Assembly (NCBI GenBank): GCA_003447535.1
Contig: DLYY01000011.1
Coordinates: forward strand, 1 to 39,385
Reading direction: 5' to 3'
Length of the DNA stretch: 39,385 nucleotides
Origin: Bacteroidota bacterium
GTDB taxonomy: Bacteria; Bacteroidota; Bacteroidia; Chitinophagales; UBA8649
Below, piece by piece: positions 2,676 through 24,820 of the stretch. The notes under the pieces were generated by a model. The model did no database searches, had not been told where the DNA came from, and was given only the letters and a program-made list of their open reading frames with translations. The first letter of the stretch is position 1; each line of letters starts with the position of its first letter. The position numbers and the translations under genes are program-made.

Positions 2676-4529
2676 ATGTGCGGTATTGGAGGAATGATTT
2701 TAAAAAGCGAAGAGGTTGCGCCTCATGCACTTGAAACCATGTGTGATGCTATGGCTCATCGTGGTCCAGATGGGAGAGGAATATATGCCAAAAACAACCT
2801 TGGGTTGGCTCATACACGTCTCTCAATAATTGATCTCGAGGGGGCCAAACAGCCCATGCACAGTTCCTGTGGGAAGTACATTATAACCTACAATGGAGAA
2901 TTATATAATTATAAATCTCTTCGTGAAGAACTTCAGGGGTTGGGGATAAAATTTTACTTAAACTCAGACACTGAGGTTGTGCTTTATGCCTACAAGGTGT
3001 GGGGGGAATCTTGCCTGACTAAATTTCGTGGTATGTTTTCCTTCGCCATAATTGACCATATCAAACAATTTGTGTTTTGTGCGCGCGATCATTTTGGAAT
3101 AAAACCATTTGTATACGTCGAAAACAAGCGGGGGTTTTTTTTCGGAAGCGAACTTCATGTATTCGTTCAGCAACCCCTGGTTTCATTAACAATTGATTTT
3201 TTTGCCTTGGACAAATATTTGTGGTTGGGGTATATACCAACCCCACTTACCATATACAAAGAAGCAAGAAAACTACCTCCAGGCCACAGCATTGTCGTGG
3301 ATTTTGAAGGAAAAGTCATTCGACAGCAAGAATATTTTTTTCCCAATGCCATTGAACAAGAAGAATCACACAGCGAAGGCGAGTGGGTAGAACAAATGGA
3401 GCGTGCAATAGAGGAAAGTGTTGCTGCCCACTGTCAAGCAGATGTGCCATTTGGTGCCTTTCTCAGTGGGGGCATTGACTCTACACTTATAAGTGGATAC
3501 ATGAAAAAGGTGAGCGGAATAAAGCAAACCTATACTATGGGGTTTGACAGCAATACTATGGACGAGACACCTTTTGCAAAAATTGCGGGAAAAACTCTCG
3601 GACTTAACCTCAACATTGAACGGGTTCCCAATGTTGATTTAGACCTTTTTGAGCGGGTGATTAGTCGCATGGATGAGCCCTTTGGGGACTCTTCTGTTGT
3701 GCCGACCTATCAAATATGTAACATTGCAAGAAAACATGCGCCTGTTGCCCTCTCGGGTGACGGGGGGGATGAGTTTTTTCTGGGATATCCGAGATATTAC
3801 CGCTGGGACGAAAAACTTAAGACAAGGTCGGGAGTTTCACGTTTTAAGGGGCTAATTCTTCCTTTGGCACATAAACTAAACCCCTCAAGATATTCTAGCC
3901 TATATCCAAAAAATACTCCTGCAGGCTATTTGGGGCTATTTGATTATCTCAAACCTGAGATTCGTGAAATCCTCTGGTCCTCAGAATATTCATCGTACAT
4001 GGACTCCTCTTTACCCTTTATTGAAGATGCCCACTACAGATCTCGCAAAATGGGTGTCCTAAACCAAGCTAAAACAATGGATACTAGGAGTTACCTCTGT
4101 GATGATATCTTAAAAAAGGTCGATTTGGCAAGCATGATGAACTCCCTGGAGGTTAGACCCCCCTTAATAGATGTTGGAATTCATAAACTTCTTCAGAAAA
4201 TGCCTCAAAGCATGCTTGTCGATACAGGAAAAGGCGGGTTAACCGGAAAACGGATATTAAAATTACTACTGCAAAAACACTTTAATCAAGAGTTTTTATA
4301 TCGGCGTAAAGCTGGCTTTGGACTTCCCCTTGATGAATGGTTTAGACAAGAAAATCCTATATATCGTCAAATTGAAGGAGAAATGCTATCCTCAAATTCT
4401 CCACTAGCGACCTACTTCGACCTGAAAGGTTTAAAACTGATACTTCAATCTCGAGATTATCCTCGCGCGACATCCATAAGTGGTCCTGTGTGGCTACTTT
4501 TTGTGTTACACACCTGGCTTGCTAAATGA
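2676..4529 (+). CDS. Asparagine synthase family glutamine amidotransferase, paralogue 1 (AsnB/WbpS-like)
   Basis: Starts MCGIGG (Ntn nucleophile Cys2). Contains HRGPD, YNGELYNY and the PP-loop FLSGGIDST, plus SLEVRPP near the C-terminus. 617 aa. Confidence 0.9.
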   Translation: MCGIGGMILKSEEVAPHALETMCDAMAHRGPDGRGIYAKNNLGLAHTRLSIIDLEGAKQPMHSSCGKYIITYNGELYNYKSLREELQGLGIKFYLNSDTEVVLYAYKVWGESCLTKFRGMFSFAIIDHIKQFVFCARDHFGIKPFVYVENKRGFFFGSELHVFVQQPLVSLTIDFFALDKYLWLGYIPTPLTIYKEARKLPPGHSIVVDFEGKVIRQQEYFFPNAIEQEESHSEGEWVEQMERAIEESVAAHCQADVPFGAFLSGGIDSTLISGYMKKVSGIKQTYTMGFDSNTMDETPFAKIAGKTLGLNLNIERVPNVDLDLFERVISRMDEPFGDSSVVPTYQICNIARKHAPVALSGDGGDEFFLGYPRYYRWDEKLKTRSGVSRFKGLILPLAHKLNPSRYSSLYPKNTPAGYLGLFDYLKPEIREILWSSEYSSYMDSSLPFIEDAHYRSRKMGVLNQAKTMDTRSYLCDDILKKVDLASMMNSLEVRPPLIDVGIHKLLQKMPQSMLVDTGKGGLTGKRILKLLLQKHFNQEFLYRRKAGFGLPLDEWFRQENPIYRQIEGEMLSSNSPLATYFDLKGLKLILQSRDYPRATSISGPVWLLFVLHTWLAK

Positions 4530-5647
4530 TGAATATTGTAATTCTTACCACATCCTACACCAAAGGGGGGGCAGAAAAACACGCCTTACTACTTGCAAGG
4601 TATCTTCAAAAAGAGACCAAACACAATGTGTCTTTCTGGGTATTTAGAAAAGGCAGCGGGGAATTAGAAGAGGAGCTGTCTCAATACCATATTCCCTCAG
4701 AAATAATTTCAAAAAACATCAGTAATAATAGGGCTATACTCCCAATCAAAACAATACGGGCCGGAATGGTCTTTCGCAGGCGGAGCATCAAAGTTGTAAT
4801 TAGTTTTAACCTCGAAGCCAATCACTTTGCGGCGAAAGTAAAAAAGTATGGTGGCTACTGTCTTGTGTGGTCTCAACAAACAAGCAACGACATACACATG
4901 CTTAATGCAACTAGCTATTCCTTTGTTTCTAATGCCAACCTTTATATCAGCAATTCCCAACATGCCGCTCAATATTTAATTGATGATTTTGGTGTTTCTC
5001 CTAGTAAAACTGTTTTTGTGGCCAATGGATTTGATGAAGAAAAAAATTATCCTGTCGATCAGCCGGTATTGGATGGTGCTATTGACTCAACGAAGTTTAA
5101 TGTGGTGATGGTCGCCCATGTAGAAGAGAGAAAAGATCATACGACCCTCCTAGATGCATGGGCACTTTTCATCAAAAAATTCCCTGAAGCCCACCTCTAT
5201 ATCGCCGGGAAAAACAACTCCACGTTTGGTAGAAACATCCAGGAGTATGCAAGGAGAGTTTGTGAGACACATACCGTATCGTTTTTAGGGGCTGTAGAAA
5301 ACATCCCCTCACTTTTAGATCAATGCTCTGCCTTTGCCTTTAGTTCAAATATAGAAGGCATGCCCAATGCCATTGTCGAAGCCATGTTTGCCAAATTACC
5401 TATCGTGGCTAATGACCTTGAGGGAAACCTGGAGGCCCTTGGTGCGCGAGCCATAGAAGAGCAAGTTTGTCCAAGTCGGGATGCTGAGCGTTTCGCCAAC
5501 CGCCTTTTGCAAATAGCAAAAGACCCACAACTAGCAAATCGGCTCGGTAAAGAAAATTATGCCTACGCCAAAAAGACATTTGGGATAAGTATCATGGGCG
5601 AGAAAACCATGGCGGCTATAAATAATCTACTTCCCCATGAAAAATAG
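4526..5647 (+). CDS. Glycosyltransferase, GT4 family (GT-B fold)
   Basis: N-terminal IVILTTSYTKGGAEKHALLLARYL. C-terminal EX7E-type motif SNIEGMPNAIVEAMFAKLPIV. ATGA overlap with the preceding amidotransferase. Confidence 0.85.
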   Translation: MMNIVILTTSYTKGGAEKHALLLARYLQKETKHNVSFWVFRKGSGELEEELSQYHIPSEIISKNISNNRAILPIKTIRAGMVFRRRSIKVVISFNLEANHFAAKVKKYGGYCLVWSQQTSNDIHMLNATSYSFVSNANLYISNSQHAAQYLIDDFGVSPSKTVFVANGFDEEKNYPVDQPVLDGAIDSTKFNVVMVAHVEERKDHTTLLDAWALFIKKFPEAHLYIAGKNNSTFGRNIQEYARRVCETHTVSFLGAVENIPSLLDQCSAFAFSSNIEGMPNAIVEAMFAKLPIVANDLEGNLEALGARAIEEQVCPSRDAERFANRLLQIAKDPQLANRLGKENYAYAKKTFGISIMGEKTMAAINNLLPHEK

Positions 5648-6503
5648 TCTTGTAATCATAGGCTGCCCACGCTCAGGGACCACCTATCTGCTTCGTCTTT
5701 TGGCATCTTGCCACACCTTAGGATATGTAAGCGCCGCCCAAAACACCGCACCCAACAAACTATTACGGTCTAGAGACTTAAGGGTATTTAATACCCCGCT
5801 ATTGGGGGGGATTCGATATGCCAAACGTCGCTACGAACATGCCCTTCCCGTAGAGTCTTGGGCTTTCTACAACAACTATTTGCCCGGTTTTCAGTGGAAG
5901 ATTGATCACGGGGGTGGGCCCAAAATAAATTATAAAACCGAAGAAATTGACGCCTTTAGACGTGCGGTTGACGGGGTGCTTAAAGAAAGCGGAAGACAGC
6001 GGTTTTTGTTTAAATACACGGATTTTTCTCGATTAGACCTGCTTTACCAGATTGACCCAACCTGTCAGGTTATTCACCTAACCCGACACCCTCTTTCTGT
6101 AATATTTTCGTATTCAAAGAAAATGGAACGGGGAGAATTTAATACCTGGAATGAACGAGAGGCCTGGTCTGCTTTGTGGGATAAAAAATTGTTCGCTATT
6201 TACCACGAATACAAAGAGGCGCTTTGTGAAAAGGCGCTCGCAGGTTGTCTGTGGGCTTTCTTTATAAGAAAAATTAAACAAGATATACGTGTGTGGAAGG
6301 GAAGGGCCGTCCAAACGTATGTTTATGAAGACCTGTTTGCATCCTACGCTCCAATTAAAGACTTGTTTAAAAATAACAACCTTACCTATAATCTAGGGGT
6401 TCAATCATTTCTAAGAAACAATAAACCTGTTGTCTATAACTATGATGAATCTTTAGAGAAGTATAGAGTCTTTGTGGATTCCTTAATCAATTACGTAGAA
6501 TAA
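5637..6503 (+). CDS. Sulfotransferase family protein (PAPS-dependent type)
   Basis: N-terminal VIIGCPRSGTTYLLRLL resembles the 5'-phosphosulfate-binding loop (PKxGTT-like). IHLTRHPLSVIFSYS resembles the 3'-phosphate-binding RxPxDxxxS region. 288 aa, no TM segment. Confidence 0.7.
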   Translation: MKNSLVIIGCPRSGTTYLLRLLASCHTLGYVSAAQNTAPNKLLRSRDLRVFNTPLLGGIRYAKRRYEHALPVESWAFYNNYLPGFQWKIDHGGGPKINYKTEEIDAFRRAVDGVLKESGRQRFLFKYTDFSRLDLLYQIDPTCQVIHLTRHPLSVIFSYSKKMERGEFNTWNEREAWSALWDKKLFAIYHEYKEALCEKALAGCLWAFFIRKIKQDIRVWKGRAVQTYVYEDLFASYAPIKDLFKNNNLTYNLGVQSFLRNNKPVVYNYDESLEKYRVFVDSLINYVE

Positions 6504-7606: not shown

Positions 7607-8424
7607 AAGATCTTCCAAAAATATCCTTCATTATTCCTTTTTATAACGCAGGAGACACGTTGAAAGAGACCTTATCTTCTGTTGTTGCTCTTGAATATCC
7701 AACTATTGAGATAATTGTGGTTAATGATGGGTCAACGTGTGATACTTCGGTTCAAACCCTTCGAGACGCACAGGCCCATTTTGAGCTTACCATTATAAAT
7801 ATTGATAACAGTGGTCCCTCAATTGCAAGAAACATCGGGATTGAGAGGTCAACGGGTAAATTTATAATACCACTTGATGCAGACGACCTTATAGAGGGTG
7901 ATTGCCATCTTCAAGCACTTAAAATCCTGGAAGAGGACCCCCGTGTTGGAGCTGTTGTTGGGAGAACTAGGTTTTTTGGAAAAAAATCAGGAAGTCATCT
8001 GTCGATAAATAAAGGCATTGATGCTCAACTCATTTATAACCAATTTCCTGTCACTGCTATTATAAGAAAAAGTATGATAGATGATGTGGGTCTTTACGAT
8101 CCTGAGTTAAGCAAGCCCGGGTTGGAAGACTGGGAGTTTTGGATTCGCGTAGTAGCCTCGAAGACCTGGAATATTACATGTATCAACAGCCCTTTTCTTG
8201 CTGTGCGTGTTTCAGAGCACTCTCGAACCATTCTTTCGGCTAATCCAAATAAAAGGGATATTGACCGATATATCCATAAAAAGCATGCTATCCTTTACGC
8301 CCAACAGCACGAGAGGTTATTTTATGCTTTGCAGGGCCTCTATAAGGAACGAAGCTACAAGATAGGGAGGGCGATTCTTGCGCCTTTGCGTTGGATAAAG
8401 CACTCATTTTATAAACCCTCCTGA
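7603..8424 (+). CDS. Glycosyltransferase, GT2 family (GT-A fold)
   Basis: ISFIIPFYNAGDTLKETLSSV...IIVVNDGSTCDT...PLDADDL, the classic GT2 N-terminal signature with a DxD. ATGA overlap with the upstream gene. Confidence 0.85.
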   Translation: MKDLPKISFIIPFYNAGDTLKETLSSVVALEYPTIEIIVVNDGSTCDTSVQTLRDAQAHFELTIINIDNSGPSIARNIGIERSTGKFIIPLDADDLIEGDCHLQALKILEEDPRVGAVVGRTRFFGKKSGSHLSINKGIDAQLIYNQFPVTAIIRKSMIDDVGLYDPELSKPGLEDWEFWIRVVASKTWNITCINSPFLAVRVSEHSRTILSANPNKRDIDRYIHKKHAILYAQQHERLFYALQGLYKERSYKIGRAILAPLRWIKHSFYKPS

Positions 8425-12721: not shown

Positions 12722-14023
12722 ATGGCCGAGTATCGAATTTTAATTCTTGCATATGATTTTCCTCCTAACCTATCTATTGGTGGTCAGCGGCCTTGGTATT
12801 GGGCTAAGTATTTAAACGAACACGGTGTTTACCCAATCATCGTAACAAGGCACTGGGAATCTTCTCTTCGCTCTGCTGCCGATTGCGTCAAGCCAAGCGC
12901 AAGTCAAGCTGTTCAAGACCTCCGTCAAGATACTCATCGAATTATTCGGATACCTTTTAATCCGGGCCTTCGCGATCGAATTTTTTTAAAATATGGGGAT
13001 TCAAAAAGAAGGTGGATTCGCAAAGTGCTTTCTTTTGTAATGACTATAGGTGAAAACCTATTTCCTAGAATTGGTGATAAATACTTCTTGTATAGGGAGG
13101 TTAAGCAACGCATTGCCTCCCTTCATGTGGATGCAATTATGGCAACCGGAGAGCCCTTTGTCTTACACTCTTTTGCTTCTCGTCTTGGCAAACAGTTCAA
13201 CTTGCCTGTTATCTTAGATTATCGAGATGGTTGGACAACTAATCAAGAGAACAAATCGCTGTCCTTTGCCGAACAACTCATACACCTGTCTCACCGCTTT
13301 AGTGAACGAAAAAACCTTACTAGCGCATCTCTGGTTACTGCAGCATCACCATCTTATCTAAAAAACATCTCTACTGAACTAATGCAAAGAGAGCGATCCG
13401 CTGTAATCTATAACGGATACGATGAAGAAGTGGCCAATCACTTAAAGCCTTCAGGTGTAAACGGCACCTTTACCATTGCCTATGCGGGTAGGCTGTATGA
13501 CTATCAGCGCTTAGAAAGTTTTCTCGAAGGACTAAGAATATTTTTAACTCACCATGCAAGCGCAAAAATTAAGGTGGTTTTTTATGGTATGTCCTTTTAC
13601 CCTGAGATGGTCAAGCGAGTAAAACGTTTTCACCAATCATTAGAAGATCACCTCGTGTTCACCGAAAGAATAACTTATTCTGGGTTAATGCAAAATCTCC
13701 ACAGCGCAGATGCTCTATTACTTTTATCTGCACCAGGTGCGGATTGGCTAAGCGCCAAAACCTTTGATTATCTCCCCCATAAAAAGCCAATACTTCTTGT
13801 CGAGGGAGATCAAGGTGTTCTTGAAAGGATTTTAGAAGAAACCTCGCTCGGCTTCATTTGTAATAACGCCAATGATGTTAGCTCCTACATTAAAGAACTA
13901 TATGAAGCTTGGGTAAATACCGGTAAAACTGAGATAGAAGACGCTTCTTCTTCTCATGCCTATACCCGTCAAGCAAGCACTAAACAGCTTGCCGATTACC
14001 TCCTCAATATAAACTGCGTCTAA
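12722..14023 (+). CDS. GT-B fold glycosyltransferase (GT4-like)
   Basis: YRILILAYDFPPNLSIGGQRPWYWAKYLNEHG at the N-terminus. The C-terminal ...DWLSAKTFDYLPHKKPILLV resembles the GT-B donor-binding half. Confidence 0.6.
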   Translation: MAEYRILILAYDFPPNLSIGGQRPWYWAKYLNEHGVYPIIVTRHWESSLRSAADCVKPSASQAVQDLRQDTHRIIRIPFNPGLRDRIFLKYGDSKRRWIRKVLSFVMTIGENLFPRIGDKYFLYREVKQRIASLHVDAIMATGEPFVLHSFASRLGKQFNLPVILDYRDGWTTNQENKSLSFAEQLIHLSHRFSERKNLTSASLVTAASPSYLKNISTELMQRERSAVIYNGYDEEVANHLKPSGVNGTFTIAYAGRLYDYQRLESFLEGLRIFLTHHASAKIKVVFYGMSFYPEMVKRVKRFHQSLEDHLVFTERITYSGLMQNLHSADALLLLSAPGADWLSAKTFDYLPHKKPILLVEGDQGVLERILEETSLGFICNNANDVSSYIKELYEAWVNTGKTEIEDASSSHAYTRQASTKQLADYLLNINCV

Positions 14024-15858
14024 TGTGTGGGGTTGTTGGATTCGTTTCGTTTCGCGATGGGAATAATACGCCGGCACCCAACTTGCTCAAGGGGGTTCTA
14101 AAACACCGAGGGCCTGATCGTTTTGCACACATCCAACTCGGCCCGTGCACATTTTGGCATTTCAGGTTAAGTGTTATCGATCCCACAGATGGTGGCAACC
14201 AACCCCTATCCACACCCTGTGGGCGCTACACCTTAATTTTTAATGGAGAAGTCTACAATTACAAAGCACTTAAAAAACAATTTAACCTTCCCTGTATAGG
14301 TAAATCTGACAGTGAAGTTGTTCTCCTTTTGTTTAATGCAATGGGTGTGGAATCTTTAGCCCTTCTTGAGGGAATGTTTTCCTTGGCAATATGGGACACG
14401 CAGGACAAAGAGCTTACCCTGGCCAGAGACCGAATTGGAATAAAGCCTCTATATTACTCTAAAGTCACTGGCTTAGGTTTTTCATTTGCTTCTGAGTTGA
14501 GAGGGCTTCAGGCATTAGGCCCAACTCGCCCATCCAATAAACACCTTGCAGACTATTTTAACCTTGGCTTTGTTCCAGGACAGAACACCTTGTTTGAAGG
14601 AATTCATCAAGTTAGGCCGGGGTGTTATATCCAACTTAAGGATGGCAAGGTCAATCATCAGGAATTCTACTCGTTGTTTGACCGCGTAAAAGAAAGGCCT
14701 TCTATTCCAACATCTTACGATGGTGCCAAAAAAATATTACGTGAACTAATCTATAAAAGCGTTGAAGATCGGTTGGTTTCCGATGTACCCCTGGGTTGTT
14801 TTTTAAGCGGGGGGGTCGATTCAAGCCTAGTGGTTGCTGTGGCTCAGAATATCCTTGGAAGCAAGCTACAAACGTTTTCGATTGGGTTTAAAGAGGCTGC
14901 GTTCAACGAAGCATATTATGCCGAAAAAATAGCTCACCATCTAGGCTGCGAACACCGAGAAAAGGTCTTTGAGCAAAAGGACTTACTCGACATTTTTTCC
15001 AACTACCTCTCTATGACCGGGCAACCTTTTGGTGATACATCCTTACTACCAACATCCCTTGTTTCCCAGTTTGCCAGAGAGCATGTAACCGTTGCACTAT
15101 CAGGGGATGGGGGAGACGAAGGCTTCTTGGGATATGGTATGTATACCTGGGCAAAAAGACTTGATAATATTCTTTTTCGAAATGCCGGGCGCCTTGCTAA
15201 CCCGCTTGTCAAAAGCCTTGGGAACTCACGATACAAAAGGGCCTTCGGGCTTTTTGAAGACCACAAAAAGGAGAATAGGCAACGTCATATTTTCTCTCAA
15301 GAGCAATATTTATTTAGCCAAAAAGAAATAAGAAGCCTACAAATAGAAAAGTGTAGCTTTTCTTCTCAACCCCCTATTCCGTCGTGGATGAATGCTCAAG
15401 AAAAGCAGGCGTTTTTTGACTATCGCTGGTATCTCCCGGATGATCTTCTTGTTAAGGTAGATCGTGCCTCCATGGCCCAAAGTCTGGAGGTAAGGGTTCC
15501 TCTATTAGATCACCGCATAGTTGAATTTGCCCTTGGGCTGCCGGTACATTGGAAAAAAAGAAACTCAGTAACTAAATATATTTTAAAAGACATCCTTTTT
15601 GACCTAGTGCCAAAAGAATACTTTAATCGGCCCAAGCAGGGGTTTAGTGTGCCTCTTGCTCAATACCTAAAAGGCCCCCTAAGGCCATGGGTCGAGAAAC
15701 ACTTAATGCGTGGGGTTATAGAAAGACATGGCTGGGTTGACGCCAGTGTCGTTGAACAATATAAAACGCGTTTCTTTACAAGGGGAGACAACTACCTATA
15801 CCACCGGATCTTCCTTTTATCCATGCTTCATCAATGGTTGGAAAAGCAAGGTGATTAA
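14023..15858 (+). CDS. Asparagine synthase family glutamine amidotransferase, paralogue 2
   Basis: Starts MCGVVG (Cys2). Contains HRGPD, FNGEVYNY, PP-loop FLSGGVDSS and SLEVRVPLLDH. 611 aa. TAATG junction with the upstream GT. Confidence 0.9.
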   Translation: MCGVVGFVSFRDGNNTPAPNLLKGVLKHRGPDRFAHIQLGPCTFWHFRLSVIDPTDGGNQPLSTPCGRYTLIFNGEVYNYKALKKQFNLPCIGKSDSEVVLLLFNAMGVESLALLEGMFSLAIWDTQDKELTLARDRIGIKPLYYSKVTGLGFSFASELRGLQALGPTRPSNKHLADYFNLGFVPGQNTLFEGIHQVRPGCYIQLKDGKVNHQEFYSLFDRVKERPSIPTSYDGAKKILRELIYKSVEDRLVSDVPLGCFLSGGVDSSLVVAVAQNILGSKLQTFSIGFKEAAFNEAYYAEKIAHHLGCEHREKVFEQKDLLDIFSNYLSMTGQPFGDTSLLPTSLVSQFAREHVTVALSGDGGDEGFLGYGMYTWAKRLDNILFRNAGRLANPLVKSLGNSRYKRAFGLFEDHKKENRQRHIFSQEQYLFSQKEIRSLQIEKCSFSSQPPIPSWMNAQEKQAFFDYRWYLPDDLLVKVDRASMAQSLEVRVPLLDHRIVEFALGLPVHWKKRNSVTKYILKDILFDLVPKEYFNRPKQGFSVPLAQYLKGPLRPWVEKHLMRGVIERHGWVDASVVEQYKTRFFTRGDNYLYHRIFLLSMLHQWLEKQGD

Positions 15859-15864
15859 TATTCC

Positions 15865-17100
15865 ATGGCACGCATTCTATACATAACATTTGATGGTATA
15901 ACAGATCCCCTCGGGAGGTCTCAAATACTGCCCTATCTCACAGGGCTGAGCAGAAAAGGACACAGCATTCACATCTTATCGCAAGAAAAAGAGGGTCAAC
16001 ATGAGCGCGAAGGGGCGGCGGTTCTTGAAAAACTTAAAAACCACAGCATAGCCTGGGACCACATAGAATACAAAAACAAACCACCCCTTATACAGCCCCT
16101 TATACAGCGCCATACGATCAAAAAGAAGGCTGTAAAGATTGTGGCAGCTAAGGCTATAGATCTTATTCACTGCAGAAGCTATATGGCTGGATGGGTTGGC
16201 TTACAGATTAAGAAAAAATCCGGCACTCCCTTTGTCTTCGACATGCGAGGGTTTTGGGCGGATGAAAGAAAGGAGGGCGGATTATGGCCCTACAACAACC
16301 CTATATACCGAATCATATACCACTCGGTCAAGCGACTAGAAAGAAAACTGCTTTTTCATGCCAATCATATCGTGTCACTAACCCATAAAGGCAAGGAAAT
16401 TATTGCTGGGTGGAACCACATTAGAGACTTTAGCGACTTCATATCCGTTATTCCCTGCTGCGCGGACCTAGAGCACTTTAACCCATTGCGCTATTCTACA
16501 AATGATAGAGCGGCTTTACGAACATCATATAGTCTAACCAACGAAGATGTTGTTATCGGATATCTAGGGTCCATTGGGACATGGTATATGCTAGATGAAA
16601 TGTTAGATGCTTTTGCCTTTTGGCACAAACACATTCCTAATTTGAAGCTATTCTTTTTGTCCAAAATCTCGCTGGACGAGTTGAGTCCTAAACTTTTATC
16701 AAGATGCATACCCAATGACTCGGTAAGGGTTTATTCGACCAGCTATGACCGGGTTCCCGAGCATCTTACCCTATTCGATGTGGGGTTGTTCTTTATTCTT
16801 CCTGTGTTTTCTAAATCGGCATCGTCGCCTGTTAAGCAAGGCGAAATGCTTGCTATGGGACTACCCGTGCTGTGTAATCGTGGAGTAGGTGATACCGACC
16901 AGGTCATTGAAGAAATCGATGAATCACTTCTTGTCGACGATTGTAATGAGGTGTACTATGAAAAAGTGCTCCGCGTACTAAAGGATAAAAAATATCGAGA
17001 GTCTTTAGTACCGATGTGCAAGGCGACCGCAAACCGATGGTTCGATGTTAACCACGGAATAGAAACATACCATTCCATTTACACAAAAATCACGCGCTGA
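15865..17100 (+). CDS. Glycosyltransferase, GT4-like
   Basis: ARILYITFDGITDPLGRSQILPYL at the N-terminus (GT4 subgroup found in EPS loci). VKQGEMLAMGLPVLCNRGVGDT in the C-terminal half. Confidence 0.7.
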   Translation: MARILYITFDGITDPLGRSQILPYLTGLSRKGHSIHILSQEKEGQHEREGAAVLEKLKNHSIAWDHIEYKNKPPLIQPLIQRHTIKKKAVKIVAAKAIDLIHCRSYMAGWVGLQIKKKSGTPFVFDMRGFWADERKEGGLWPYNNPIYRIIYHSVKRLERKLLFHANHIVSLTHKGKEIIAGWNHIRDFSDFISVIPCCADLEHFNPLRYSTNDRAALRTSYSLTNEDVVIGYLGSIGTWYMLDEMLDAFAFWHKHIPNLKLFFLSKISLDELSPKLLSRCIPNDSVRVYSTSYDRVPEHLTLFDVGLFFILPVFSKSASSPVKQGEMLAMGLPVLCNRGVGDTDQVIEEIDESLLVDDCNEVYYEKVLRVLKDKKYRESLVPMCKATANRWFDVNHGIETYHSIYTKITR

Positions 17101-18088
17101 ACGGATGTTTTTTCTGTTGACTGCTTAATAGAGGGTGTGCTTCTTCGGGGTCTTTAGGTAGACTGGGTGTAACGCCTCGCATTTTGGTAAGAATTTCTAT
17201 GGCGGGTTGTGCATCAGCCAAAGAGCAGCCCTTATTGTTTAATATGTCTTTGTACACTTCTGTGTGAAGGTCCATAAAGCCATCACTAAAAGTAACCTCT
17301 TGATTGTCTATCCTAAGACTTCTGTAGCTTCCCGTAGCTGTTTTGCTCTGACCCTTTGGAACTATATCACCATCAATAGATAAAAAATAACGCACCCTTG
17401 CGTCCTTAAATAGAATGTGCCCTGCTTCTCTGTCGTGGCTTCGTGCATGGACTTTAAAATCTAGTGCGGGACCCAAGGCCCACAACAGCATATCAAAAAA
17501 ATGAATACCTATATTGGTTGCTAACCCACCAGACTTTTCTTGAATACCTTTCCAAGAAGCATAGTACCAATTTCCCCGTGGAGCTATATAGGTTAAATCA
17601 ATTACTGCAGGTGATGGGGGTTGGGAAGCACTTGCGAACGCGCTTTTCCAAGCGATCACTGAGGGGTGTTTGCGAAGTTGTAAAATCGGATGAACCCTTT
17701 TTCCCGACTTAGATTGAAGCTGTAGCAGGCCCTCTAGGTTTCTTGAGTCTACCACAATAGGTTTTTCGCAAATTACCTCCATGTCTTGGCGTATACCAAA
17801 GCGTATATGGGCATCATGAAGGTGGTTTGGACTACAAACCACAAGATGCGTAACTGGCAAACCTAGCTGTCTTTGTTTGTCTAAAAAACGGTCAAATCGC
17901 TCGAATGAAGTAAAAAAGTGCGCGGCTGGGGCGTACTGATCAAGGATACCTATGCTATCATTAACATCATATACTGCAACCAACTCATGACCCAAATCGT
18001 GTATAGCCTTATAGTGACGTGGTGCAACATATCCTGCACCACCAATAAGAGCAAACCGCTTGGGAATATGTAGCTTTTTTTCTTCCAT
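17090..18088 (-). CDS. Gfo/Idh/MocA family NAD-dependent sugar-nucleotide oxidoreductase (WbpB/WlbA-like)
   Basis: The ATG at 18088 (MEEKKLHIPKRFALIGGAGYVAPRHYKAI, Rossmann GxGxxA) forms an ATGA overlap with the upstream acetyltransferase stop. The longer track ORF (to 18145) would overlap by 58 nt. The EKP motif (VICEKPIV) is present. Confidence 0.8.
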   Translation of the reverse strand: MEEKKLHIPKRFALIGGAGYVAPRHYKAIHDLGHELVAVYDVNDSIGILDQYAPAAHFFTSFERFDRFLDKQRQLGLPVTHLVVCSPNHLHDAHIRFGIRQDMEVICEKPIVVDSRNLEGLLQLQSKSGKRVHPILQLRKHPSVIAWKSAFASASQPPSPAVIDLTYIAPRGNWYYASWKGIQEKSGGLATNIGIHFFDMLLWALGPALDFKVHARSHDREAGHILFKDARVRYFLSIDGDIVPKGQSKTATGSYRSLRIDNQEVTFSDGFMDLHTEVYKDILNNKGCSLADAQPAIEILTKMRGVTPSLPKDPEEAHPLLSSQQKKHPFSA

Positions 18089-18672
18089 CACACAATTATT
18101 ACGCCTTTTAGGGTAAGCCGATACAACTCTCCGCTTTCTGGGCAATTAGCCTCATCTCCTGATTTACTTAGCGATAATCTATGTCCTGACTTGCTTACCC
18201 AACCCTTGTGTCTTGCAGGGTTACCGTAAACCAACTCATAAGGCTTAATGTCTTTTGTTACCACAGATCCTGCACCGACAAAACTATGAGATCCTATTTC
18301 TATTCCGCACACAATGGTTGCGTTGGCGCCGACGGTAGCCCCCTTTCTAACTATTGTTTTTTTATACTGGTCTTTTCGCACGATATGAGCCCTTGGATTC
18401 ACTACATTGGTAAACACCATAGACGGTCCTAAAAAGACATCATCCTCACAAATCACGCCTTCATAAATTGAGACATTATTTTGAACTTTAACATTGTTTC
18501 CTAGAACACATTTTGAGGCTATAAAACACCCCTGGCCGATGGTACATGACAATCCGATTTTCACATCCCTCATAATGTGGGAAAAATGCCAAACCTTCGA
18601 ACCCTGGCCGATTTGTGTCGGATAATCAATTACCACAGATTCGTGTACAAATACTTTTGTTTTATCTATCAT
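18088..18672 (-). CDS. Left-handed beta-helix (hexapeptide repeat) N-acetyltransferase (WbpD/WlbB-like)
   Basis: Repeated [LIV]-G-x4 hexapeptides (IGQGSKV, IGLSCTIGQGCFI, LGNNVKVQNNVSI, VGANATIVCG, VGAGSVV) and C-terminal YGNPAR. Size (194 aa) and pairing with a Gfo/Idh/MocA gene match the 3-amino-sugar N-acetyltransferase pattern. Confidence 0.8.
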   Translation of the reverse strand: MIDKTKVFVHESVVIDYPTQIGQGSKVWHFSHIMRDVKIGLSCTIGQGCFIASKCVLGNNVKVQNNVSIYEGVICEDDVFLGPSMVFTNVVNPRAHIVRKDQYKKTIVRKGATVGANATIVCGIEIGSHSFVGAGSVVTKDIKPYELVYGNPARHKGWVSKSGHRLSLSKSGDEANCPESGELYRLTLKGVIIV

Positions 18673-18688
18673 AACTTGGTGCTAACCA

Positions 18689-19255
18689 TTAAATGGGTTT
18701 TGGTGTAAAATATGGCCTAAAAAAAGAGATTACAACCAAAAAAAGTGCCCCATATATCATAAGAATATACGTGTAGGAGTGACTAAAGTAAAAGAATTGT
18801 TCCCACTGGGCATACAGCATAAAGCCCAAGGTGGTTATCCGAAACCAATTTAGGAAAACGATTGTGGCCATGGCAACCGCCCAGTATTTCAATCTTCTTG
18901 GTAGCGGAAGGGGGTTCCACAAAAAAACCATAGTCATGATGGCCATTGGGGCAACACCAACACAGTGAAATGCCACAAACATTGGTGGAGATGCGGGAAG
19001 GAAAATATTTTGAGAGTTTACAAGAACCGGAGCTTGTATAAAAAACTCCAAGACGGGCTGGGCTAACGATATATAAAACGTTGAAAAAAAAATGTGGAAA
19101 TCATCCCAGTGGGGGCGAAGTAACCCCGACTTTTCCATAATCTCCCGAAATGAAAACCAAACAAGATATATAACAAGTATTCGAACGAAAAATGCAATGT
19201 ATCTTGAGGATTCATCTTGATGTCCTTTAAGGGAAAAAAATTCTTTGAAGTTCAT
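18689..19255 (-). CDS. Exosortase/archaeosortase family integral membrane protein (XrtF-like)
   Basis: Polytopic membrane protein carrying the three ordered exosortase signatures: FHCVGV (Cys, codon 18962-18964), FLNWFRIT (NxxRI Arg, codon 18839-18841) and FSHSYTYILMIYG (His, codon 18779-18781). The track ORF extends to 19312. I prefer the ATG at 19255 (MNFKEFF...) because it removes the overlap with the divergent gene. Confidence 0.6.
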   Translation of the reverse strand: MNFKEFFSLKGHQDESSRYIAFFVRILVIYLVWFSFREIMEKSGLLRPHWDDFHIFFSTFYISLAQPVLEFFIQAPVLVNSQNIFLPASPPMFVAFHCVGVAPMAIMTMVFLWNPLPLPRRLKYWAVAMATIVFLNWFRITTLGFMLYAQWEQFFYFSHSYTYILMIYGALFLVVISFFRPYFTPKPI

Positions 19256-19286
19256 GTCAACTATGAAGCAAAGCAACAAAAAAGTA

Positions 19287-20381
19287 ATGGAAAAGAATAG
19301 GAGACTTCTCATATTATGTCCCTATCCGAAAGGATGTGCAGGTTCTCAACGCTTTCGTTTTGAACAATATCTTCCCTTTTTGGAGGCTAACAACATAATC
19401 GTTGACCAGCAGTCTTTTTTAACAAGGTGGGGGTGGACTGTTGTGTATAAAGACGGCTATAGCTTGTTTAAAATATGGGCCACGCTATTAGGTTTTTTGC
19501 GTCGCTTTTTTGGTTTGTTTTCTCTATGGCGCTATAACCTTGTTATGATTCATCGAGAGGCAAGCCCAATTGGCCCCGCCATTATTGAGTGGTGGATTGC
19601 TCGCATTGCAAAAAAAAAGATCATCTATGATTTCGACGATGCGATTTGGATAAATAACACCTCAAACCCTTGGATTTCCTGGCTGAAAAACCCTGAGAAA
19701 ACAAAGCGTATTTGTAAATGGTCATCTGTTGTTTATGTTGGAAACCAATATCTCGCTGATTTTGCAACTCAGTACAACGACAATGTCTTCATTATACCGA
19801 CAACAATAGATACCGAGCATCATCATAACATCACTAAAAAACATATTAAAAACAATAAAAATAAGGCGGTCTGTATCGGTTGGACAGGCAGCCATTCTAC
19901 CCTGCCCTATCTCAAGAACGTTGAGGGAGCTTTAAAAGCAATCCAAGACAAGCACAATGTCTGTTTCAAAATTATAGCAGATAAGGCGCCACAAGAGCTG
20001 GCCATTCCTTATGATTTTGAAGAATGGGATATCATGCGTGAAATTGACCAGTTGCGGCCCATTGATATAGGTATTATGCCCCTTCCTAATGAGGAGTGGG
20101 CAAAAGGAAAGTGCGCTTTTAAAGCGCTACAATACTTAAGCTTGGGCATCCCTTGTATTGCATCGCCCGTGGGTGCCAACAAAACCGTTGTGCTCGCAGA
20201 CCATACCGGTCTCTTGGCCGAAACGGAAAACGAGTGGATTGAAGCAATAGAGCGCCTCTTGCTAGATCATGCTTTAAGAATTCAGTTGGGAGAGGCGGGA
20301 AGAAAGCATGTCCTGCAGCGTTTTTCCGTTTTAAGTCAACACACCGTGTTTGTTCACAACATAAATACACTGACGCTATAG
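19287..20381 (+). CDS. GT-B fold glycosyltransferase
   Basis: The internal ATG at 19287 gives MEKNRRLLILCPYPKGCAGSQRFRFEQYLPFL; the track start is 19245. C-terminal CAFKALQYLSLGIPCIASPVGANKTVV is a GT-B donor-site-like segment. Confidence 0.65.
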   Translation: MEKNRRLLILCPYPKGCAGSQRFRFEQYLPFLEANNIIVDQQSFLTRWGWTVVYKDGYSLFKIWATLLGFLRRFFGLFSLWRYNLVMIHREASPIGPAIIEWWIARIAKKKIIYDFDDAIWINNTSNPWISWLKNPEKTKRICKWSSVVYVGNQYLADFATQYNDNVFIIPTTIDTEHHHNITKKHIKNNKNKAVCIGWTGSHSTLPYLKNVEGALKAIQDKHNVCFKIIADKAPQELAIPYDFEEWDIMREIDQLRPIDIGIMPLPNEEWAKGKCAFKALQYLSLGIPCIASPVGANKTVVLADHTGLLAETENEWIEAIERLLLDHALRIQLGEAGRKHVLQRFSVLSQHTVFVHNINTLTL

Positions 20382-21740
20382 GGTCTGAGCCTCTTCTTGC
20401 TTGTTTGTTCGAAGAGAGTAAAGCCCGGCTAAAACGATTCCAACCGTTGGCAAGCAGGGTATTTTGTAGCGCACAAGAGCACCAAAATTATACGCAGTAA
20501 ATCCCACAGCAAAACCGAATATTATTGAAAAAAGTAATGAGAATTGCAGAATTGGGTGTTGCTTAAAAATACGAGAAAGAGTGTATTCTGGGTTTTTGTT
20601 TGATTGAAAAAAGACCAAAAACCCTATGGAAAACAAGGCCAAAGATTCCAAAGAGCTCAAGGCCATGAGTAGATTGCTAACCTCCCATGGAAAGGGTCTA
20701 AAAAAAGTAGTTATCAAAGCGACCGGGGCCTTGGTTATCAAACCAACTGTTGAAAAGTCCGTGTTGCCCAAACTATAGGATGAGCCTTCGTAATCATAAA
20801 CTTCTTCGACTTGATGGTGCCACTGCTGCATGGCTTCAGCCTCGTATTGAAGATTCTCTACTGAATACCGGCCCAGTATATTCCCCAACTGAGATAATAA
20901 AACCAAGGATATGAGGATGGCACCTGTCGCAAGAACAGGATTTAACGAGCTTGAGGCGGCACTTGAGGATGAAAGTCTTTTCTCGGCAGTATACCATAAA
21001 AAAGCCGCCGGCACGAAGGCTACCAAAATATAGCTTTTTATAATGACAACGAAGTATGCGATTATCAGCATGACTACAATGTTTCTAATCCTATTTTCGC
21101 GCAATATGACGCCGCGATAAAAACAAGCAACCACCCATGTTATACCCCCCAGAGTAAGCGTATCCTTCAATAATCCACTACCCCAAAACACTACCGAGGG
21201 AAACAATAATATAGCAACACCTAAATATGTTTTTGAAACCTTCGGGATTGCGACACAAGCTATTCGGTACAGCTGCCACAAGCCAGAAAAAGCAAAAACA
21301 GAAAAAATCAAAGCAACGTTTGTGTAGATACCAAAGCATACTATGTTAGCTATGGCGGCAATTCGAACGACCATATATGATGCGGTGTCATATGCTCGCA
21401 ACGATGTCATTAAAAAATAGGTTTCGCCCGCCTCGTCTGGGTACGCAGAAAAAACAAGCTTTAATCCAAGAAGAAAATCACTTTTTAGAACACTAGAGAT
21501 TCTGAGCATTCTTTCATAATAGTATACTGTATCGCCATCTTGATAATAAAACCAGTAGATGGCACCGATTGCAAAAGGGCTAATCAATTTTACCAAAAGG
21601 CCTAGGTTAAACATTCTACGGTCATCTGAATCGGGAAACCTTGATGAAATCCTAAGCCCTATAAACAATATTATGCCCACATATACAGGACCGATAATAA
21701 AATCCAATAACTCCACGGTTTGAATATACGTCTTTACCAA
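20376..21740 (-). CDS. Polytopic integral membrane protein of unknown family; candidate Wzy-type polymerase or GT-C-like enzyme
   Basis: 454 aa with at least 10 hydrophobic segments and one large soluble loop (…GRYSVENLQYEAEAMQQWHHQVEEVYDYEGSSYSLGNTDF…FFRPFPWE). TTG start at 21740, with no in-frame ATG until codon 43. I recognise no family motif. Confidence 0.7.
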   Translation of the reverse strand: MVKTYIQTVELLDFIIGPVYVGIILFIGLRISSRFPDSDDRRMFNLGLLVKLISPFAIGAIYWFYYQDGDTVYYYERMLRISSVLKSDFLLGLKLVFSAYPDEAGETYFLMTSLRAYDTASYMVVRIAAIANIVCFGIYTNVALIFSVFAFSGLWQLYRIACVAIPKVSKTYLGVAILLFPSVVFWGSGLLKDTLTLGGITWVVACFYRGVILRENRIRNIVVMLIIAYFVVIIKSYILVAFVPAAFLWYTAEKRLSSSSAASSSLNPVLATGAILISLVLLSQLGNILGRYSVENLQYEAEAMQQWHHQVEEVYDYEGSSYSLGNTDFSTVGLITKAPVALITTFFRPFPWEVSNLLMALSSLESLALFSIGFLVFFQSNKNPEYTLSRIFKQHPILQFSLLFSIIFGFAVGFTAYNFGALVRYKIPCLPTVGIVLAGLYSLRTNKQEEAQTL

Positions 21741-21762
21741 AATCCTTTTATTTTACAATCGT

Positions 21763-23634
21763 ATGTGCGGTATCGTTGGTTGGATTGGAAATAATGCTCC
21801 GTTAAGCAGCGAGGAGTACCTCGTTGCTGTAAACTCGTTGAAACATCGTGGACCTGACCACGGCAATCACGTTGTCTTCGGTAACAACGACTTTCTCGGC
21901 CATAGGAGGCTTGCAGTTGTTGATCTTGACGCTAGGTCAAACCAACCCATGAAAAGCCCGTGTGGGCGCTACTGGCTTGTGTATAATGGGGAGTTATTTA
22001 ACCATGAAACATTAAGGCAATATTTATTAAACCGTGGTGTGGGCTTTCAAACATCGTCTGACACCGAAGTGCTTCTTCAGGGCCTTATAACTTATGGTGA
22101 AGATTTTATTGAAAAGGTTAATGGTTTTTTTGCCTTTGCTTTTTATGATACCCTAGCCCAAGAAGTACTTCTTGGTCGCGACCGAATGGGAATTAAACCC
22201 CTCTATATCTTTCATTCAGATGATGGACTTCGTTTTAGTTCAGAACTCAAAGCACTTAAAAGCCTTCGCGTACCTTTTCAAATCAACCCACAGGCGCTGA
22301 ATGAATACCTCTTATACAGTTATGTTCCCGAGCCGCTCTGTTTAGTTAATGGAGTTGTTAAGCTCGCTCCAGGCACAACATTACGCTATTCAGCGAAGAA
22401 GGGTGCAATACAAAATCGCTATTATAGCATGGACCAAAGTGCGAGCCAACAGAAGCTTTCATTTACTGAGGCTGCCATAAAGTGTAAAGAAAAAATAGAA
22501 CACGCCGTGGGGCTTCGAATGGTGGCAGACGTACCCATCGGGTCGTTTCTAAGCGGTGGAATTGATTCGTCGATCATTGCTTCAATTGCCCAAAGGCTTC
22601 ATGGTGGCATACAAACCTATTCCATCGGGTTTGAGGGGCGGAACTTTTTTGACGAAACAAACGCAGCTAGACGGACCGCTGTCGCCCTTGGCACAAAACA
22701 CGAAAACATTGTATTATCCGATGACAAAATCTTTAATCAATTAGACCTCTTTTTTGATGCCATGGACGAGCCCTTTGCGGACTCGTCGGCAATCAATGTA
22801 TTTCATTTATGTAAACAGGTTAAAAAACACATTACTGTGGCGTTGAGCGGTGATGGGGCCGATGAAGTTTTTGGGGGGTATAACAAGCATCGTGCTCTCC
22901 TCATGAGCCTAAACCCCGTTTATAGAACCTTGCTCACCGCAATACGCCCCCTCTTGGGGCCAGGGGTGTCCAGCCGTGGCTCTATGCTTCGAAACAAGGC
23001 CAGACAACTTCATCGACTTAGTCTTGGTGTCAGTAAAGGCTCTAGGGCGCGATATGCCTATTGGGCGGCGTTTTCAAACCAAAATGATATACATCGTGCA
23101 CTCATAAATCCGTGGCAAGGAAACCCCTCTTTTTATGACCTCTTGCCTAAAAAAATAGAATGTCTTAATGACTTTCTGTATGCTGATCAACGCATTATCC
23201 TGCCGTCTGATATGCTTGCAAAAGTCGACAAAATGTCAATGGCCTCAAGTCTTGAAGTGCGGGTTCCTTTTTTAGACCATCATGTTGTTGGTCTTGCGAA
23301 CTCTCTCCCATCCTCATTCAAAATAAAGGGTTCCGTAACGAAAAGACTTCTTCGCAGAGGATTTGAAAGTGATTTGCCTTCAGAGGTTTTTCGTCGGCCG
23401 AAACATGGGTTTGAGGTTCCACTAGAAGAATGGACAAGAACTGTTTTTTCTGATAGAACCGAACAATTCATACAGAAAGACTTTCTTGATGCACAAGGTC
23501 TATTTTTACACAAACCATTGCGGCAAATCTTTGAAACTAACCAAAAAGAAGGCCAGGCAGAATCAAGCGCTTTTCTTTATTCCTTCCTAGTGTTTCAAGA
23601 GTGGTGGGCGCGTATAAATTTAATCGATGGGTAA
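21763..23634 (+). CDS. Asparagine synthase family glutamine amidotransferase, paralogue 3
   Basis: Starts MCGIVG (Cys2). Contains HRGPD, YNGELFNH, PP-loop FLSGGIDSS and SLEVRVPFLDH. 623 aa. Confidence 0.9.
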   Translation: MCGIVGWIGNNAPLSSEEYLVAVNSLKHRGPDHGNHVVFGNNDFLGHRRLAVVDLDARSNQPMKSPCGRYWLVYNGELFNHETLRQYLLNRGVGFQTSSDTEVLLQGLITYGEDFIEKVNGFFAFAFYDTLAQEVLLGRDRMGIKPLYIFHSDDGLRFSSELKALKSLRVPFQINPQALNEYLLYSYVPEPLCLVNGVVKLAPGTTLRYSAKKGAIQNRYYSMDQSASQQKLSFTEAAIKCKEKIEHAVGLRMVADVPIGSFLSGGIDSSIIASIAQRLHGGIQTYSIGFEGRNFFDETNAARRTAVALGTKHENIVLSDDKIFNQLDLFFDAMDEPFADSSAINVFHLCKQVKKHITVALSGDGADEVFGGYNKHRALLMSLNPVYRTLLTAIRPLLGPGVSSRGSMLRNKARQLHRLSLGVSKGSRARYAYWAAFSNQNDIHRALINPWQGNPSFYDLLPKKIECLNDFLYADQRIILPSDMLAKVDKMSMASSLEVRVPFLDHHVVGLANSLPSSFKIKGSVTKRLLRRGFESDLPSEVFRRPKHGFEVPLEEWTRTVFSDRTEQFIQKDFLDAQGLFLHKPLRQIFETNQKEGQAESSAFLYSFLVFQEWWARINLIDG

Positions 23635-24820
23635 TCAAAAAATTCGTGTTTTGCGCATAGCTAATCGGCTCAACATTGGGGGTCCAACGTATAACGTATG
23701 CTACCTAACAAAGCATCTTGGTGACTCCTATGAAACCATGTTGGTTGTTGGGCAGGAAGACTCTTCAGAAGGCAGTTCATTGTACATTGCAAAGTCAATG
23801 GGGCTTTCCCCAAGGCTTATCCCTTCCATGCGGCGCTCCATTAATTTGAGTCGAGATCGGAAAGCATACCGAGAAGTCCGCAAGATTATTCGTGAGTTTA
23901 AGCCTCATATAGTGCACACTCATGCAGCGAAAGCTGGAGCAATAGGGCGCTATGCCGCCTATAAAGAAAAGGTTCCTGTTGTCCTTCACACTTACCATGG
24001 GCATGTTTTCCATTCCTATTTTAACAAGATAAAAACAAGTGTTTTCTTGGCCATTGAGCGTTTCTTGGCACGCAGAAGTAGTGTCCTTATTGCAATCAGC
24101 CCTTTGCAGAAAAAAGAACTTTCAGAAGACTACAAAATTGCAAGCAACTCTAAGTTTCGCACAGTACCGCTAGGTTTTGACTTAGAGCGATTTTTCCAAA
24201 ACATGGACAACAAGCGTAATGCATTTAGGGAATATTGGGGCCTTGGTGATGATGTATTAGCTATTGCCCTTGTCGGGCGGCTTGTTCCTATAAAAAATCA
24301 CCCTTTCTTTTTAGAGTCAATATCTTATGTAAAAGGCAATACAAAGAAAAAATTTCAGGTCTTTCTCGTTGGGGATGGTGAAGAGAAGAATGATTTAATG
24401 ACCCTGTGTGATAAATTAAACCTGTCCCATAATTTTGTGCCTGATTCAAGTGTTGATGTTGTTTTTACCTCCTGGATTTCGGAGGTAGACCAAGTTTTTG
24501 CCGGTATTGATCTAGTATGTCTCTCTTCGAAAAACGAGGGTACACCAGTCAGCCTTATTGAGGCTGGTTGTGCTGGCAAACCATTTATCTCAACAGATGT
24601 GGGTGGTATTCGTGATCTTTTAATAGACCCCGAACAAGGTATCGTTACTCCTCAAAAAAATATTGAAGCATTTAGAAGTGCACTTCTAAATTGGGTTATA
24701 ACAGCTAATCCTGGGCAAGGTTTAGATCTTGATGTTCGTAAGAACCTTTCAAAAAGGTATAGTTATAAACAACTATGCTTTGAAATGTCAAAAGTCTATG
24801 AAGAATTGCTTCCTTCATAA
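23627..24820 (+). CDS. Glycosyltransferase, GT4 family
   Basis: IRVLRIANRLNIGGPTYNV at the N-terminus. SSKNEGTPVSLIEAGCAGKPFISTDVGGIRDLL is the EX7E motif. 8-nt overlap with the preceding amidotransferase. Confidence 0.85.
   Translation: MGNQKIRVLRIANRLNIGGPTYNVCYLTKHLGDSYETMLVVGQEDSSEGSSLYIAKSMGLSPRLIPSMRRSINLSRDRKAYREVRKIIREFKPHIVHTHAAKAGAIGRYAAYKEKVPVVLHTYHGHVFHSYFNKIKTSVFLAIERFLARRSSVLIAISPLQKKELSEDYKIASNSKFRTVPLGFDLERFFQNMDNKRNAFREYWGLGDDVLAIALVGRLVPIKNHPFFLESISYVKGNTKKKFQVFLVGDGEEKNDLMTLCDKLNLSHNFVPDSSVDVVFTSWISEVDQVFAGIDLVCLSSKNEGTPVSLIEAGCAGKPFISTDVGGIRDLLIDPEQGIVTPQKNIEAFRSALLNWVITANPGQGLDLDVRKNLSKRYSYKQLCFEMSKVYEELLPS

Follow-up and report, generated by a model that had tools for sequence, protein, structure and literature searches.

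The 39,385-nucleotide stretch analysed here (the window in what follows) covers positions 1 to 39,385 of contig DLYY01000011.1 from the Bacteroidota bacterium assembly GCA_003447535.1. It carries a polysaccharide locus at 493-29177 with 24 genes, 8-9 of which are GT4-like glycosyltransferase (GT) genes according to Pfam. Three further genes of this locus, here named Asn1, Asn2 and Asn3, encode glutamine-dependent amidotransferases of the asparagine synthetase B (AsnB) family. A previous reading of the DNA letters and their translations (the sequence-only reading) had described the three as full-length genes, each directly followed by a GT4 gene, and had proposed either a repeat unit with several amidated carboxyl sugars or a coupled module that amidates and then transfers a sugar. 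The three genes agreed exactly with the list of open reading frames (ORFs), and the pairing with the GT4 genes, here GT4a, GT4b and GT4c, was borne out by Pfam and by direct reading of the junctions.

2676..4529, + strand: Asn1, AsnB-family glutamine-dependent amidotransferase of 617 amino acids (aa) (Pfam; start MCGIGG; FLSGGIDST)
14023..15858, + strand: Asn2, AsnB-family amidotransferase of 611 aa (Pfam; start MCGVVG; FLSGGVDSS)
21763..23634, + strand: Asn3, AsnB-family amidotransferase of 623 aa (Pfam; start MCGIVG; FLSGGIDSS)
4526..5647, + strand: GT4a, GT4 glycosyltransferase (Pfam Glycos_transf_1 and Glyco_transf_4), overlapping the stop codon of Asn1
15865..17100, + strand: GT4b, GT4 glycosyltransferase (Pfam Glyco_transf_4 and Glycos_transf_1), 6 nt after Asn2
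23627..24820, + strand: GT4c, GT4 glycosyltransferase (Pfam Glyco_transf_4 and Glycos_transf_1), the member of the most stable pairing

Asn1, Asn2 and Asn3 (Asn1-3) each matched Pfam GATase_7/GATase_6 and Asn_synthase, with E values from 1e-33 to 1e-92. The Cys2 nucleophile (MCG[IV]) and the SGG[IV]DS PP-loop noticed earlier are visible in all three translations, and the N-terminal Cys directly follows the initiator Met, as is characteristic of the AsnB superfamily. Alignment with Escherichia coli AsnB showed that the glutamine-site residues C2, R50, N75, E77 and D99 (R49, N74, E76 and D98 being the E. coli equivalents) and the synthetase-site residues SGGxDS, D352, E353 and K450 (the Lys449 equivalent) are invariant. 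Since the N-terminal nucleophile (Ntn) Cys, the glutamine-binding residues, the PP-loop and the Lys449 equivalent are all kept, all three proteins should be active amidotransferases.

Scores against curated NCBIfam models bear on the possibility that one or more of the three is simply an ordinary asparagine synthetase that happens to lie in the polysaccharide locus or was recruited to its vicinity. All three proteins exceeded the cutoff of 267.1 bits of the broad model TIGR01536, "asparagine synthase (glutamine-hydrolyzing)" (Asn1 379.8, Asn2 406.8 and Asn3 447.8 bits), and Asn3-clade genes of Fulvivirga and Reichenbachiella stand in non-glycan contexts, for example beside pheS, both of which would suit such an origin. 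However, NF006949, the model of genuine asparagine synthetase B, returned 210, 243 and 288 bits, which is around half of its cutoff of 499. Besides the catalytic and glutamine-binding features that they have in common with E. coli AsnB, Asn1-3 show only 25-30% identity to it, two insertions of ~24 and ~70-90 residues, a different C-terminus, a change of SGEG to SGDG, and a different motif at the place of Asp384 and Arg387, which are presumably the residues that bind Asp in the E. coli enzyme. Because of the sub-cutoff NF006949 scores, the low identity, the insertions and these two altered motifs, Asn1-3 are predicted not to be genuine AsnB. Moreover, all three copies lie within GT operons whose GT synteny is conserved, and we regard the presence of an ordinary asparagine synthetase among them as highly improbable.

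The top-scoring specific NCBIfam model for all three was TIGR03108, the amidotransferase of the XrtA/PEP-CTERM system (eps_aminotran_1), which was matched from end to end (628 aa in the model and 611-623 in the window proteins). The scores of 470.5 bits for Asn1, 419.2 for Asn2 and 448.9 for Asn3 are about half of its cutoff of 816.9, and the proteins form clades of their own. Among solved structures, the hydroxyamidotransferase 7ylz was nearest, and AsnB and human ASNS came next. Homologues of the AsnB type proved very abundant, with at least 8000 scored in each of three homologue searches and nearly all of those listed at E <= 1e-30. In a neighbour-joining (NJ) bootstrap tree that comprised 98 AsnB-like sequences and had E. 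coli AsnB as its outgroup and only reference, the three window proteins fell into three separate clades, each with a bootstrap of 100 and consisting mostly of Bacteroidota sequences. Their pairwise identities are 33.1, 33.3 and 33.8%, essentially equidistant, which agrees with the strong divergence noted from the sequence alone. The further suggestion that Asn2 and Asn3 are the closer pair holds only weakly: the motifs quoted in its favour are present, but the identities are nearly equal and the grouping of Asn2 with Asn3 reached only 51% NJ bootstrap. We infer that Asn1-3 are ancient paralogues with different specificities.

The junctions within the pairs are tight. Asn1 and GT4a share an ATGA overlap at 4526-4529 (-4 nt; translation of GT4a might instead begin at another ATG, at 4529), the TAA of Asn2 and the ATG of GT4b have TATTCC between them, a 6-nt gap (15859-15864), and Asn3 and GT4c overlap by 8 nt at 23627-23634 (ATGGGTAA). 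Asn2 is also entered from the other side by a gene that overlaps it by 1 nt and whose orthologue (38% identity) lies elsewhere in L088 (labels of this form denote the relative loci that were compared with the window, and coordinates without a label are those of the window):

12722..14023, + strand: GT4-like gene (Pfam Glyco_transf_4 at 5e-6, weak matches to the N-terminal domain only)

Thus, the tightness on which translational coupling of the pairs had been proposed is real. It is not particular to the AsnB-GT4 pairs, because all same-strand junctions in the locus overlap or are at most 20 nt apart. Comparison of the GT4 partners gave 22% identity over 182 aa between GT4a and GT4c, and GT4b had no significant match to either, so that the partners do not form the one homologous subfamily that a duplicated module would predict. 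As the three downstream GT4s are unrelated as a set, duplication of an AsnB-GT4 cassette is excluded; a recent tandem duplication was rejected on the same ground together with the ~33% identity and the separate deep clades of the AsnB-family copies. An attempt to derive the donor sugars from solved GT4 structures was uninformative, as the matches were generic GT4 enzymes only (PglA, MshA, BshA, TarM and WaaG) and GT4b had zero.

When the order of the 24 locus genes was shuffled, all three AsnB-family genes were each followed by a GT4 gene in 2.8-4.2% of the shuffles, and each had a GT4 gene as its upstream or downstream neighbour in 23%. The adjacency within the window is weaker evidence than it appears, because the locus is rich in GT4 genes, its junctions are uniformly tight, and the GT4 partners are not homologous as a set. 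We then surveyed the neighbours of AsnB-like genes in 80 diverse genomes. A Pfam GT4 neighbour was found at 20/79 downstream and 19/81 upstream positions; with a local GT4 profile, the frequency was 27-28% at +1 and -1, fell to 4-17% three to six genes away, and averaged 12% over all positions. In Fisher tests, the flanking positions +1/-1 differed from all other positions with an odds ratio (OR) of 4.1 (P = 2e-9), and from positions 2-4 away (27.6% versus 13.6%) with an OR of 2.4 (P = 2e-4). At a given flank, about 72% of the AsnB-like genes had no GT4 gene. These results showed that AsnB-like genes tend to sit among GT4 genes, symmetrically and modestly, at about a quarter per side. The enrichment in this sample has no direction from AsnB to GT4. 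More than one AsnB-like gene within 10 kb was present in 9/75 loci.

In related loci, the three pairings behaved differently. The Asn1 clade, which unites Asn1 with L086 and L093 (bootstrap 100), is linked to Wzm/Wzt. There, Asn1 and GT4a orthologues are adjacent in inverted order in 2/2 loci: L086 reads Wzm-Wzt-GT4a orthologue-AsnB-sulfotransferase and L093 reads Wzm-Wzt-GT4-AsnB-GT4, the GT4a orthologue upstream of the AsnB gene having 36.7% identity in L086 and 26.9% in L093. In the Asn2 clade (with L089, L088, L071 and L092; bootstrap 100), Asn2 and GT4b orthologues are adjacent in 3/4 relatives (L087, L089 and L088), and L092 splits them by two genes in the order WbpB-AsnB-membrane protein-epimerase-GT4b; in L071 they are likewise apart. 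Asn3 is directly followed by a GT4c orthologue (49-64% identity) in 4/4 loci (L087, L089, L088 and L092), and across Bacteroidota this pairing is kept at identities as low as ~38-40% and 49% and invariably stands immediately before Wza/Wzc/WecA. Among the polysaccharide-locus relatives, only Asn3-GT4c is consistently adjacent.

The Asn3 clade (bootstrap 100) also includes solo Cytophagales genes without a GT neighbour (L090 and L094). These genes, L090:10001-11899 of Fulvivirga kasyanovii and L094:10001-11872 of Reichenbachiella, have ~42% identity to Asn3 and stand in non-glycan contexts, after a histidine kinase gene and after pheS. L088 carries three AsnB-like genes within 20 kb; the third copy (L088:3394-5250, - strand), which shows ~30-32% identity to all window copies, does not belong to the Asn1 orthologues, and it and a GT4 gene are transcribed in divergent directions. 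In Acidobacteriota, Methylomirabilota and others (L060, L062, L018, L021, L048 and L072; for example L062:2025-16409), a recurrent set surrounds one AsnB-like gene and comprises a GT4b-like gene, a GT similar to the one at 19245, the AsnB-like gene, a GT4c-like gene and a ~600-aa WecA-like protein, with the GT4b and GT4c orthologues 1-5 genes from AsnB. This recurrence in distant phyla suggests an old, widespread core for exopolysaccharide (EPS) synthesis.

These comparisons bear on the idea that the pairs are dedicated units, in which each AsnB-family protein amidates the donor of its GT4 enzyme, or the residue freshly added to a lipid-linked intermediate, the two proteins being co-translated and possibly associated. 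Such units would fit the overlapping or nearly overlapping junctions, the persistence of orthologous pairs in relatives, including an Asn1-GT4a pair that stays adjacent despite its flip, and the GT4 frequency that peaks at +1/-1 over the 80 loci. However, the GT4 partners are mutually unrelated, gene order is not conserved (flipped in Asn1-GT4a, split in Asn2-GT4b of L092), the Asn3 clade contains solo genes, and in Acidobacteriota and other phyla the GT4b and GT4c orthologues share a single AsnB-like gene to which they are not adjacent; in addition, most AsnB-like genes lack a GT4 gene at a given flank, and tight junctions are common to the whole locus. The coupled module proposed by the sequence-only reading is not supported as a general rule by these comparisons, and of the adjacency on which it was based, the Asn3-GT4c part was conserved, the Asn1-GT4a part was flipped and the Asn2-GT4b part was partly split. 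To our knowledge, amidation on the assembly line together with a partner GT has not been shown for any AsnB homologue of a glycan locus. We consider dedicated units unlikely as an account of the three pairs. A narrower form, in which Asn3-GT4c would be a two-enzyme unit amidating a lipid-linked intermediate made or used by GT4c and the other pairs would be looser versions of it, strikes us as doubtful.

The gene order of the locus starts with Wzm, Wzt (with a Wzt_C domain), Asn1, GT4a, a sulfotransferase and more GT4 and GT2 genes; the middle part consists of the GT4-like gene, Asn2 and GT4b, followed on the minus strand by WbpB, WbpD and a small exosortase-family protein; and the last part consists of a GT, a 454-aa membrane protein (- strand), Asn3, GT4c, Wza, Wzc and a WecA-like gene. 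The export and initiation genes are as follows.

493..2657, + strand: Wzm/Wzt ABC exporter (Pfam ABC2_membrane, ABC_tran and Wzt_C), the first genes of module A, which contains Asn1
5637-6503, + strand: sulfotransferase between GT4a and the next GT4 gene, in module A
24729..29177, + strand: Wza-like exporter, Wzc-like co-polymerase/kinase and WecA-like initiating transferase (Pfam Poly_export, Wzz/GNVR/AAA_31 and Glycos_transf_4), the end of module B

What appears to be a single locus is two juxtaposed modules, each of which is found separately in other genomes. Module A (493 to ~11480) is composed of Wzm/Wzt, Asn1, GT4a, the sulfotransferase and GTs, and is found by itself in L086 and L093. 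Module B (12722-29177) holds Asn2 and Asn3 with Wza/Wzc/WecA, and stands alone in L088 and L092; in L089 and L092, too, the Wza/Wzc/WecA block comes after Asn3-GT4c. No Wzx- or Wzy-type Pfam match was seen in module B. The sulfotransferase and the Wzt_C exporter of module A hint at a sulfated, possibly sulfate-capped, ABC-exported glycan. A sulfotransferase orthologue adjoins the Asn1-clade gene in L086. Also in module A, a 305-aa ORF at 9416-10333 (+ strand) has a sub-threshold Glycos_transf_1 match, and its orthologues in L086 (40%) and L093 (32%) are 344-356 aa long with clear Glycos_transf_1 matches; the window ORF may represent a short GT or one that has lost part of its N-terminus.

The minus-strand genes of module B provide information on the possible substrate.

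17090..18145, - strand: WbpB orthologue (UDP-GlcNAcA 3-dehydrogenase type; PDB 3o9z and 3oa2 (WbpB), E = 3e-82)
18088..18672, - strand: WbpD/WlbB orthologue (3-amino-uronic acid N-acetyltransferase type; PDB 3mqg, E = 4e-62)
18689..19312, - strand: small exosortase-family membrane protein of ~190-207 aa (TIGR04178 39.8 bits, cutoff 23)

WbpB and WbpD act on UDP-GlcNAcA derivatives, which are UDP-uronic acids. Because both orthologues are present in the window, the glycan is probably built with a 2,3-diacetamido-uronic acid. In L092, a WbpB orthologue of 52% identity immediately precedes the Asn2-clade gene. The exosortase-like protein scored 48.6 against the XrtX cutoff of 170, was also below the cutoff of XrtY, and matched Pfam EpsH at a sub-threshold 24.7 against 25.7; its motifs FHCVG, NWFRI and SHSY contain Cys, Arg and His, and L087 and L089 have the gene, but L088 and L092 lack it. 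In the survey, 6/81 upstream neighbours of related genes were exosortase EpsH/DUF3485 proteins, which, along with the TIGR03108 association, confirmed the earlier remark that AsnB-like genes accompany exosortase-linked EPS loci.

Characterised enzymes of comparable setting are known to form uronamides, as the sequence-only reading had stated for the WbpS type. In Porphyromonas gingivalis, also a member of Bacteroidota, deletion of the AsnB-type gene PGN_1234 (WbpS) abolishes the uronamide on a Wbp-pathway sugar (PMC7468200), and E. coli O121 reportedly needs WbqG for uronamide formation (PMC7468200; King et al. 2010, cited by PMC3684757). WbpS of Pseudomonas aeruginosa O6, WbqG and PGN_1234 resemble the window proteins in their two-domain, glutamine-dependent AsnB-type architecture and their glycan-locus setting, the likeness being one of architecture and gene context; they occur as one copy per locus, whereas the window has three diverged copies. 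PGN_1234 works with the Wbp pathway (WbpA/B/E/D), of which the window has WbpB and WbpD orthologues, but neither a 6-dehydrogenase nor WbpE was found nearby.

Multiple copies per locus also have precedents. The wbm O-antigen locus of Bordetella bronchiseptica contains three glutamine-dependent amidotransferase genes, wbmC, wbmI and wbmZ, for which 2,3-diacetamido-uronamides were proposed, with nucleotide sugars favoured by the authors as the amidation substrate (PMC2615507); it differs in making a proteobacterial homopolymer O-antigen and in having a periplasmic deamidase, WbmE, of which no equivalent was seen in the window. The psc1 cluster of Rubrivivax gelatinosus, conserved in Thauera MZ1T and Rhodoferax, has three genes annotated "asparagine synthase (wbpS)", one of which, RGS1_10407, has a group-1 GT on either side, and the cluster is associated with PEP-CTERM/exosortase genes (PMC3684757); EPS clusters of the Zoogloea/Aquincola type have two such genes (PMC9012009). 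The three wbpS-like genes and the GT-flanked copy of psc1 resemble the arrangement in the window. The psc1 and Zoogloea-type clusters, however, belong to Betaproteobacteria with the full XrtA/PEP-CTERM system, whereas the window has only the small, sub-threshold exosortase-family gene and combines Wzm/Wzt and Wza/Wzc modules.

Taken together, the reading we prefer, with a probability of roughly 55%, is that Asn1-3 are three WbpS/WbqG-like uronic-acid amidotransferases of differing specificities that serve two glycan pathways, and that their adjacency to GT4 genes reflects mainly compact operons. By the chemistry of the family, the N-terminal Cys would hydrolyse glutamine, the ammonia would be channelled to the C-terminal PP-loop domain, and there the acceptor carboxylate would be adenylated with ATP and turned into a primary amide. 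The likeliest acceptors would be the C-6 carboxylates of hexuronic acids, including 2,3-diacetamido-uronic acid, giving products like the WbpS/WbqG uronamides. Asn1 would act for the Wzm/Wzt-dependent glycan of module A, and Asn2 and Asn3 for the Wza/Wzc/WecA-type glycan of module B. The neighbouring GT4 genes would then be explained by compact operons in GT4-rich loci plus a moderate, direction-independent tendency, with no dedicated two-gene module. The identity of the acceptor, and whether it is presented as a nucleotide sugar or on a lipid-linked glycan, are what we infer here; the domains, clades, synteny and WbpB/WbpD orthology are observed.

Several observations weigh against this reading. 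A UDP-sugar 6-dehydrogenase and a WbpE aminotransferase were not found in the window or in related Bacteroidota loci, and in the survey a UDP-sugar 6-dehydrogenase lay within 10 kb of the AsnB-like gene in only 5/80 loci; co-located 6-dehydrogenases, tried as support for uronic-acid substrates, thus failed. Asn1-3 score far under the TIGR03108 cutoff. Also, the persistence of the Asn3-GT4c adjacency and the statistically real GT4 enrichment make a functional link with neighbouring GTs possible. The proposal of several amidated carboxyl sugars in the sequence-only reading accordingly stands as plausible in view of the kept active sites, the WbpB and WbpD orthologues and the WbpS-type precedents, and is weakened by the 6-dehydrogenase not being found.

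The rarity of UDP-sugar dehydrogenases near the family also favours an acceptor other than a uronic acid, such as an amino-acid or other acidic substituent of the glycan, a carboxylate in a peptide or of the peptidoglycan type (the target of AsnB-type meso-diaminopimelate amidotransferases), or some product connected with the exosortase-like protein. Module B contains an exosortase-family gene, TIGR03108 is classed as a "hypothetical equivalog" without an assigned substrate, and the hydroxyamidotransferase 7ylz, the closest solved structure, has a non-sugar acid as its substrate. Nevertheless, genes for an amino-acid ligase, a pyruvyl transferase or nonulosonic-acid synthesis were not found in the window with Pfam, and WbpB and WbpD indicate a uronic acid precursor, for which reason WbpS-like uronamide formation is favoured. 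Moreover, the experimentally tested AsnB-type enzymes of glycan loci are all reported to make uronamides (PMC7468200, PMC3684757). Amidation of a non-uronic carboxylate therefore seems to us quite unlikely.

The multi-copy AsnB-type arrangement and the adjacency to GT genes are already documented elsewhere, and the window is a further example in an uncultured marine Bacteroidota lineage; the persistent Asn3-GT4c pairing is the only element that could go beyond the known pattern. If the three enzymes amidate different acidic sugars, the negative charges of the surface glycan would be largely neutralised, and the module A glycan may in addition bear sulfate. Such charge-neutralised glycans would be relevant to marine particle attachment, to recognition by phages and grazers, and to carbon cycling. 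Few members of this abundant family of EPS-locus AsnB-type enzymes have been characterised biochemically, and the three clean clades with their distinct contexts (Wzm/Wzt, WbpB and GT4c/WecA) make well-defined candidates for work on substrate specificity.

As for the surroundings, proteins identical to those of the window came from marine metagenome contigs (Tara Oceans), where PorP/SprF and MreBCD-PBP2 genes lie upstream, and the homologues that carry organism names come from Bacteroidota. An Rfam scan of the window gave zero matches. Downstream of the locus, a 195-aa ORF at 33295-33882 (- strand) matches the tryptophan 2,3-dioxygenase profile (346 positions) at positions 15-133 only and may be a shortened version or a piece of that enzyme. 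It is followed by a 1049-aa ORF at 34230-37379 (+ strand) with zero Pfam matches, which has membrane segments near its N-terminus and a very acidic C-terminal half that is rich in E, Q and K and coiled-coil-like, in a region of unusually high GC skew (0.22-0.33).

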